The notes beneath the pieces are model-generated. The model searched no databases. It saw only the letters and a program-made list of their open reading frames with translations, and had not been told where the DNA came from. Below are positions 40,513 through 41,359 of a stretch of 41,359 bases of DNA, piece by piece. How positions within the stretch are numbered: the stretch's first letter is position 1; each line of letters begins with the position of its first letter. Both the position numbers and the translations under genes were made by a program. Source of the stretch: Macrostomum lignano (taxonomy: Eukaryota); assembly GCA_002269645.1 (NCBI GenBank), contig NIVC01002953.1:1-41359 (forward strand), in the 5' to 3' direction.

Positions 40513-41359
40513 TTAAGGTATTTCGGTTTGTGGCCGTTCCAAATATGCGGTCGCAGCAAAATCATATCCTGCTGATGTGCTACCACAAACGGCTGCACCA
40601 CGAATAAAATGTGCGGCATCTGCTCCTCCAGTTCGAGCACCAAAACCCATAAGAGTTCCGTTTTATCTAAATCTCCCCAAGTTCCACTATCATATGTAAA
40701 AAAGTTTTGCCCAATTAGCGTATATGTATTAGCTGATACATTGTATGTGCTTATTTGATACCAAACTCTTTGATTTAAAATATTAATTTCAAAAAGATGC
40801 CAATCGCCGTTATCAATATTAGCATAGGTTATAGTTTGATCTGCGTCATTAAGAACATCATTACGAGCTGTTGCACCGTCTGATTTTATATTGCTCCAAA
40901 CAACCCCAACTCTATCATGCCATTCACTCGCAAACAATCAAGCCGGCGCGGGTTGTTAACCCGGATCCAAATTCACTTGTTGGACGTTCGTGACAATATG
41001 CATAAAACCAAACGCGTCAGCACCATCTCCTGTAGCATTAGCAACTCGGAAATAGAAGGAGGCGGATATATTACGAAAATGGGTGAAATTAAATTGTAAC
41101 GCTCCAGACCGACCGTTGCTTCATCAGTAATTCTAGCACCATTTTGATAATCTATATAAGTAGCGCTCCAACAAAACTTCCTGTTGGAAAAATATCGCCG
41201 GCTGTGGTTGGGTTTTGATATCCAGTCCAATTGCAAATTACGGCTCGTACAAAGCGGCATCATTGCAGGTATTCCATCCAATTTTATTTTATCATTAAAA
41301 GACATTCGGCCATCCGCGTTTGGTGTTACTCGCGTGTCACATAACCTTTAGTAACAACA
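40513..41359 (-). CDS. Candidate fibre/receptor-binding protein with a C-terminal L-type (legume-like) lectin domain; 5'-incomplete, several frameshifts
   Basis: Reconstructed: VVTKGYV(D)TR...GALQFNF...SASFYFRVANATGDGADAFGF...NIDNGDWHLFEI...YGFGARTGGADAAHFIR...TEIP stop. The F.F...GADxFxF, DG.WH and GF.A.TGG...H motifs are L-type lectin hallmarks, and TKxYVD is a fibre-shaft motif. Confidence 0.68.

Follow-up and report, generated by a model that had tools for sequence, protein, structure and literature searches.

A Polinton of Macrostomum lignano carrying a candidate attachment-fibre gene with a predicted phage-related L-type lectin head

Genes and features at the locus

The window analysed here is the whole stretch of 41,359 nucleotides of Macrostomum lignano DNA, and its main features are collected in Table 1. 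Positions 1-32398 consist of repeat-rich eukaryotic DNA with a GC content of 0.454, and 46 tandem-repeat rows were recorded over the window. At position 32399 the GC content drops to 0.317 and an element begins with AGTAGT, which we take to be a typical Polinton end; one end of the element, with its 27-nt perfect inverted repeat, lies within the window. The short ORF preceding the pX-like one presumably resembles the membrane-active accessory genes of adintoviruses. Regarding the polymerase, the pPolB motifs DANNLYG (36818), KLMNNAFYGK (37284) and YADTDS (37574) are located in three different frames, and the middle piece matches the pPolB of a PLV-type contig at 34% (E = 4e-38). Together with the AGTAGT end, the GC step and the pX-like ORF, these matches bear out the Polinton context given in the earlier note: the element is the left part of a Polinton/Maverick. 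Within the polymerase PF02945 is matched above the cut-off (E = 7.5e-7), and an HNH-type endonuclease insert in pPolB is described as a trait of the pPolB2 class in the text passages of 10.1101/2023.08.22.554363. Among the window ORFs no Pfam match to an OTU-like N-terminal domain of PolB was obtained, and integrase, capsid, penton, ATPase and protease are absent from them, the element running off the right end.

Several side observations concern the element and its flank. The left end folds as a 269-nt hairpin (-64.8 kcal/mol, z -14.3) inside which the AGTAGT end sequence is repeated in reverse, and this hairpin may matter for priming or integration. A second perfect inverted repeat, of 30 nt, is located at 32753-32850, a short way before the first ORF. 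The insertion point of the element lies at the margin of two long satellite arrays (26087-32399), with units of 22 bp x 229 and 21 bp x 47. Further into the flank, a 273-aa ORF at 20920-21741 gave no significant Pfam match and presumably resembles a retrotransposon gag. Elsewhere, a PLV-type contig (L020, positions 1-13941) combines capsid-like genes with a related pPolB that bears EndoVII and with a long, repeat-containing fibre-like ORF.

The minus strand of 40513-41359 carries one gene, split over nine frame pieces by eight frame switches near 41340, 41260, 41240, 41170, 41115, 41010, 40930 and 40660, with its 5' end beyond the right edge of the window. When the longest piece, with X at two stops, was compared by phmmer with a library of 1.84 billion representatives, five matches were obtained, two of them strong: P0002 (191 aa, 58% identity, E = 1.5e-50) and P0003 (332 aa, 48% identity, E = 1e-31), both of which are intact, single ENA proteins. 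P0004-P0006, repeat proteins whose matches were short and weak, were dropped as homologues. In tblastn, P0002 and P0003 are collinear with 41329-40531 over three frames (E = 4.6e-60 and 4.9e-46, respectively). Moreover, an HMM built from six phage and prokaryote relatives alone places four of the gene's pieces in ranks 1-4 among the window's 800 stop-to-stop pieces. Since two intact homologues are collinear and the HMM ranks the pieces first, the motif set goes beyond chance, and the ordered lectin motifs that had been proposed across the frameshifts at this place are confirmed on the minus strand. Two of the words read there require correction. For GADAF, the GADA with its Asp is present, but the F lies just past a frame switch, and the homologues read GADAIWF or GADSIWF. 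For TKGYVD, the TKGYV is present and P0003 has PKYYVD, but the full word is read across a frame switch; TKxY[VA][DT]-like words occur twice in the window, once in the host flank, and so prove nothing alone. Longer relatives were not found in word-index searches, which is weak evidence.

Table 1. Positions of the features of the element and of the candidate fibre gene in the window.
Feature	Position	Strand	Remarks
Polinton left end	32399..32667	.	starts AGTAGT; 27-nt perfect inverted repeat; hairpin
132-aa ORF with amphipathic G-rich stretch	32889..33287	+	no Pfam match
218-aa ORF with pX-like segment	33298..33954	+	PF05829 Adeno_PX, E 0.0026, below cut-off
Protein-primed DNA polymerase B with endonuclease VII/HNH insert	34609..38060	+	split over several frames
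Candidate fibre gene, 3' part (shaft, neck, predicted L-type lectin head)	40513..41359	-	nine frame pieces; homologue chain
TKGYV	41352-41338	-	matches PKYYVD of P0003; runs up to a frame switch
Shaft repeat G-x-M-S-x-x-D-K-x-K-L-D-G-I-P, phage-fibre type	41267..41311	-	phrog_6907, phage fibre records, trimer model
Neck AAL..A.C.W.G..NPT	41168..41260	-	common to P0003, 320-kb phage protein and Deianiraeaceae fibre
Predicted L-type lectin-fold head	40560..41165	-	Atlas model, feature search, hhalign, PDB match, HMM
GADA = loop-A Gly-Ala-Asp	41024-41013	-	invariant in 8/8 aligned relatives
Shortened loop C ASEWHD	40914..40931	-	sits at canonical L-type E-[FY]-D-T-x-x-N
NIDNGDWH	40820-40797	-	motif location in window
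Loop-D GFGARTGG	40647-40624	-	motif location in window
Stop codon of fibre gene	40515-40513	-	

Nature of the frame breaks

The stretch is contained, at about half its words, in 20 of the 24 listed runs (eight studies, one organism), and no RNA run is among the listed runs that contain it. Short-read contigs of four runs from four studies cover 30 of 30 bins of the compared stretch and fall into identity classes of 99+, 95-99, 90-95 and under 90%, which implies several diverged copies of the element. It can be observed that the length in these contigs differs from that of the window at or beside all eight frame switches, each in two to four of the four runs, and that the 12 listed of the 32 length differences are all of the same sign. 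Furthermore, the homologue-matched pieces comprise 269 codons with 0 stops; the corresponding no-stop probability of 1e-8 is biased because the frames were picked by homology. Since length differences are found at all eight switches and the 269 codons are free of stops, the breaks are read as errors of an unpolished long-read assembly, and it is very probable that the gene is intact in the real genome.

Alternatively, the window copy could be a truly decayed pseudogene whose breaks are biological, a reading favoured by the presence of several copies by contig identity class, by the lack of a single contig that spans the stretch and by a pPolB that is also broken over frames. However, the uniform sign of the 12 listed differences, their coincidence with every switch and the open codons form the pattern of an unpolished long-read consensus, and decay is considered unlikely. 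A chimeric assembly, in which symbiont or phage DNA had been joined to the Polinton, would be suggested by the prokaryotic nature of the closest located relatives and by the finding that no short-read contig joins the gene to pPolB, the compared span being 39450-41359 only. It is very improbable, given the 20 runs from eight studies of one organism that contain the stretch, the continuous read depth from the neighbouring genes into the fibre gene and the agreement in GC3 between this gene and the element. The assembly-error reading is accordingly retained for the breaks; both it and the phage relatives of the module described below were missed in the earlier note.

Substitutions among the copies were also compared. 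Among the 40 best-supported of 160, 23 fall within the gene and 10 of these are synonymous, an excess that is not significant (p 0.07). Within the distal half of the head (40623-40867) 0 of 8 listed substitutions are synonymous, compared with 10 of 12 over the neck and the proximal part of the head (Fisher p 0.0007); when three sites beside a break are kept, the proximal count becomes 10 of 15 (p 0.003). The boundary between the halves was set after the data had been seen and some sites may be window errors, and the contrast is therefore graded a weak lead. In two runs extra sequence is present at joints right at the 3' terminus of the fibre gene (40510-40521), so that copies may differ there. 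Downstream of it, at 39533-40497 on the minus strand, small ORFs are located, one with two hydrophobic segments and none with a Pfam match of note; short-read length differences are also listed across this region, and the ORFs may be fewer, longer genes.

Fold of the head and its putative binding site

The fold of the head was assessed on the homologues. For P0003, residues 84-332 of an Atlas model (pTM 0.61) match clusters of legume-like and L-type lectins with TM 0.65-0.72 across about 200 residues, the structure rows for this region being led by PF03388 and PF00139 clusters. In an Atlas feature search of P0002, L-type clusters appear at 0.93-0.90, and all 10 of the 10 best family-bearing matches belong to one clan. 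At the profile level, hhalign of an eight-member alignment against nine PF18483 domains gives a probability of 96.0 (E = 4.7e-9, 160 columns); this value rises as bridging relatives are added, from 0.5 (E = 0.12) with the two ENA homologues only, through 94.8, to 96.0. It should be noted that the nine reference lectins were chosen by a GADG pattern and that the ordered-motif test (0 of 100000 shuffles) was defined afterwards, which makes that test partly circular. With the family profile, the top PDB match is the legume lectin 7ELV (E = 1.9e-5). When aligned with PF18483 domains from viral contigs, P0002 and P0003 reach z 5.6 and 3.3, respectively, and the X-bearing window piece (P0001) alone stays shuffle-like at z 0.5.

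Other searches were negative or uninformative. Both AlphaFold2 models are of low confidence (pLDDT 33 for P0003 and 35 for P0002), and the fold consequently rests on the Atlas model and the profiles; Foldseek on these models returned no E under 0.001, and the best VIA-align hit, a mucin at Z 5.4, is uninformative. No lectin match to Pfam, NCBIfam or PHROG was obtained for the window pieces, P0002 or P0003, which stay below the curated cut-offs of PF18483, PF00139 and PF03388, and phmmer of the X-read-through piece against PDB gave 0 matches. Even the relatives match PF18483 at no better than E = 0.0015 and 0.00052, far under the cut-off. With the homologue evidence of the Atlas model, hhalign and 7ELV, the proposal of a legume/L-type (ConA-like) lectin fold holds, and at the level of modelling and profile comparison this fold can be regarded as settled for the family. 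Judged by the motifs GAD..W....C...P.[TS]E and GFGARTGG, the head is assigned to a distinct subfamily.

The binding site departs from the canonical one, which in the text passages of PMC9999234 consists of an Asp, an Asn, a Gly, an aromatic residue, Ca and a non-proline cis peptide at the Ala-Asp bond. The loop-A Gly-Ala-Asp is invariant in eight of eight aligned relatives and is kept in the window. Loop C is cut to ASEW[HT]D, compared with E[FY]DTW..N, leaving a gap of about 6-11 residues; in the alignment, the Ca-binding Asp is matched with Ser and the sugar-binding Asn falls in the gap. The earlier note had read a sugar-binding Asp here, and its loop-A Ala-Asp stands, but the Asp and Asn of loop C are absent; by the loop-C test the head would not be a canonical sugar-binding L-type lectin. 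A Trp, a Cys, a Pro, a Thr, two Glu and a His are also invariant in eight of eight relatives, and a Gly-rich loop B and a Trp/Tyr/His/Phe after the loop-C Glu are present, although their placement in a site needs a confident model. Because these other residues are invariant despite the lost loop-C Asp and Asn, a remodelled site is suggested in place of the canonical one.

A glycan is slightly favoured as the ligand on the sequence data. With the same fibre and the same fold, the head might instead bind a protein receptor, or nothing specific, through a degenerate sugar site. The shortened loop C with its lost Asp and Asn is in keeping with this, as is the inactivity of the L-type domains of staphylococcal Aap and SasG on a 492-glycan array, reported in the text passages of PMC9999234. 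The loop-A Asp, a Trp, two Glu and the loop-D Gly/His are, however, invariant in all eight phage, bacterial and archaeal relatives and point to a kept ligand or metal site, and we consider a non-glycan head improbable.

Shaft repeats and oligomeric state

The repeat G-x-M-S-x-x-D-K-x-K-L-D, found once in the window and twice in P0003, precedes the head. The match of this shaft to phrog_6907 has E = 0.026 for the window and 1.9e-9 for P0003. Weak matches (E = 0.07-9) connect the shaft piece of the window with 33 phage records, mostly annotated as tail fibre; the repeat also matches phage repeat proteins and, weakly (E = 0.032), the trimeric monocin side fibre FtbO (PDB 9J1L). The same repeat precedes the same lectin domain in L045 and L096, the phage and Deianiraeaceae proteins described below. 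As judged from these comparisons, it appears to be better evidence of a shaft than TKGYVD.

A three-copy model of P0003 residues 38-332 scores 0.59, compared with 0.23 for the best of three controls; the runs agree in at least 48% of contacts, the partner pLDDT is at least 63, and the confident interface comprises residues 39-80 only. In the calibration, which used two copies where the present job had three, 21 of 30 solved pairs of one chain attained the mark and 0 of 23 single chains did; the protein modelled was P0003 instead of the window protein. The score may also reflect memory of similar solved fibre repeats. The model supports a homotrimer that would form through the shaft, and a fibre-type shaft before the lectin head, as proposed earlier, is upheld by this model and by the phage-type repeats of phrog_6907, FtbO and the tail fibres.

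Relatives and origin of the module

A search for relatives of the head in IMG/VR, JGI metagenomes and GTDB returned none; it was insensitive, since degenerate DNA patterns for GFGARTGG and GAD..W....C...P.[TS]E later located some. No relative of the head was found in the phage and plasmid collections. The first pattern set gave 28 loci, four of them true relatives; the second gave 31 loci, of which 28 have a motif-bearing frame and seven fall under E 1e-5, four of these being already known.

The relatives found in this way occur in several kinds of protein. In a 320-kb phage (G006, 92% complete) a protein of 276 aa (L045) has the same shaft repeat, neck and head, matches P0003 at 33% over 269 aa (E = 2.7e-28) and is encoded next to a head-decoration/virion-like gene. 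In a Ca. Deianiraeaceae MAG (L096) a 670-aa DUF2793 fibre carries the shaft-neck-lectin module (E = 2e-46). Among 201 genomes of its order the gene was recovered from one, L096 itself, and thus no general Rickettsiales route is indicated. In three siphophage-type contigs the tape-measure gene is followed by one for a baseplate-hub-like protein that has the lectin domain as an insertion, and the same subfamily is present in a DUF2341 surface protein of Saccharibacteria and a pilin-like protein of Hadesarchaea. Three further observations were made in these collections. The DUF2793 fibre gene with its lectin tip (L096, 2444-4444) stands alone among housekeeping genes and is a candidate adhesin. 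In the small siphophage contigs the domain sits mid-protein in the baseplate-hub-like protein (L044, 1954-3951). In many IMG/VR contigs (L022-L040) a canonical PF18483 domain is found in large proteins that look secreted; these may be adhesins borne by phages, or the viral contigs may include host DNA.

In a tree of 12 rows, rooted at the midpoint and with host lectins left out, the window protein, P0002 and P0003 group together (100/100) as sister to the phage and Deianiraeaceae fibre proteins (94/92). The direction of transfer, presumably into the Polinton lineage, is deduced from how widely the domain occurs in prokaryotes and their viruses. The GC3 of the fibre gene is 0.23, within the 0.19-0.26 of the element's other genes, indicating that acquisition was not recent. 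ERGIC-53/VIP36 cargo receptors have a C-terminal membrane segment and a cytosolic tail, and a captured host L-type lectin of this kind was weighed as the source of the head, given that rows 1 and 3 of the Atlas structure search are eukaryotic legume-like/VIP36-like clusters and that ERGIC-53 has a similar GADGLAIWY segment. However, no membrane segment or tail of the ERGIC-53/VIP36 type follows the domain in the window protein, P0002 or P0003, all of which stop no more than about 25 residues past the last strand. Furthermore, all located relatives with significant sequence similarity come from phages, bacteria and archaea, and NIDN..WH is common to the prokaryote domains and absent from ERGIC-53. 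Capture from the host is thus extremely improbable.

Discussion

Lectin-bearing fibres are known from related viruses. According to the text passages of PMC12220804, fibres of protist PLVs combine phage-type shaft repeats with LamG3 (of the ConA-like superfamily), with one H-lectin or with discoidin. They resemble the present gene in joining a phage-type shaft to a carbohydrate-binding-type domain within the same virus class; their LamG3, H-lectin and discoidin heads are, however, often accompanied by an S74 chaperone, whereas an L-type head, pPolB and an animal-looking host are found here. No L-type Pfam name or accession appears in those passages or in two supplements. Adintoviruses and animal Polintons, as far as covered in PMC8502044, have pPolB, a pX-like accessory gene and inverted ends as here, and some maps include a 'Fiber' gene; an L-type head does not appear in that text, in which 'Lectin' occurs once, for galactose-binding domains of non-animal MELD viruses. 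For oomycete Polintons, the passages of 10.1101/2023.08.22.554363 describe phage-like beta-helix fibres and report no lectin. The fibre of porcine adenovirus 4 has a galectin domain (cited in PMC3386624, from its available text) and, like the fibre predicted here, represents a trimeric fibre of a related virus lineage with a carbohydrate-binding beta-sandwich tip, but the galectin is placed on an adenovirus shaft and knob, in contrast with an L-type domain on phage-type repeats.

Regarding the head and shaft separately, the prokaryotic L-type domains (PF18483; 7ELV; SraP 4M01; Aap/SasG/Pls, from the passages of PMC9999234) have in common with the head the fold, the loop-A Ala-Asp, NI[DE][DN]..W and GF.A.TGG, with motif spacings of 67/58 residues in the head and 72/58 in those domains. 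Unlike them, the head is under the Pfam cut-off, has a shortened loop C and possesses its own C...P.TE motif. The monocin fibre FtbO (PDB 9J1L; PMC11830787, as available) has a trimeric stalk with repeats of the kind found here, G-x-[ML]-S-x-x-D-K-x-K-[LI]-D, and differs in its His-metal hairpins and in lacking a lectin head. In the literature searched, with subscription papers and adintovirus maps partly covered and an earlier mention possible, no L-type lectin fibre on a Polinton was found. The novelty originally claimed for a lectin fibre head is thus narrowed: such a fibre is already known in kind, from PLVs (PMC12220804, in the passages available) and porcine adenovirus 4, and the new part is the L-type, phage-related head on a Polinton.

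With moderate confidence, we propose that the gene product, with its phage-related lectin-fold head, serves a pPolB2/Beta-type Polinton as a trimeric attachment fibre. The host would carry several diverged copies of such an element. In the modelled process, three chains would zip together via the short phage-type shaft repeats, and each chain would end in an L-type lectin-fold head of the distinct subfamily, which phages and prokaryotes appear to deploy on fibres, baseplate hubs, pilins and surface proteins. It may be from this phage/prokaryote pool that the Polinton lineage obtained shaft, neck and head together, as a single module. The heads would most likely grip cell-surface or mucus glycans, probably via a remodelled site for which the loop-A Asp and two Glu, all invariant, would provide the basis. 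Beyond the fold, the collinear homology, the architecture common with phage fibres and the Polinton context, all of which are computed, the fibre protein is probably located on the virion.

Instead of an entry receptor-binding protein, the product could be a capsid decoration or non-virion cargo with a role in mucus adhesion, stabilisation or inside the cell. The adjoining of the phage homologue to a head-decoration-like gene with no obvious tail operon, the small size of P0003 (just 332 aa, with two shaft repeats) and the absence of a penton gene from the window are compatible with such a role. The other carriers are, however, a baseplate hub and a DUF2793 tail-fibre-type protein, and a fibre-like protein of a PLV was found in particles according to the text available of 10.1101/2022.07.28.501842; this role is rated as quite unlikely, and the attachment fibre remains the preferred function.

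The gene bears on whether animal Polintons form infectious particles and how these would attach to cells. Since the predicted lectin-fold head is small and soluble and has intact natural homologues, attachment is directly testable on a glycan array. One adhesion module is common to a jumbo phage, siphophage baseplates, bacteria, archaea and a eukaryotic virus lineage, and such genes hide in error-rich assemblies and escape Pfam. A more far-reaching and rather doubtful scenario is that an animal Polinton took a complete phage fibre tip, with shaft, neck and an undescribed L-type subfamily, with phages or a symbiotic bacterium as the donor. In this scenario the tip would remain intact in several copies, and its distal head half would differ between copies in the manner expected of a receptor-binding protein under pressure from the host. 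If true, this would be genetic evidence that such elements still infect cells from outside via glycans, and would provide the first candidate receptor class for an animal Polinton.
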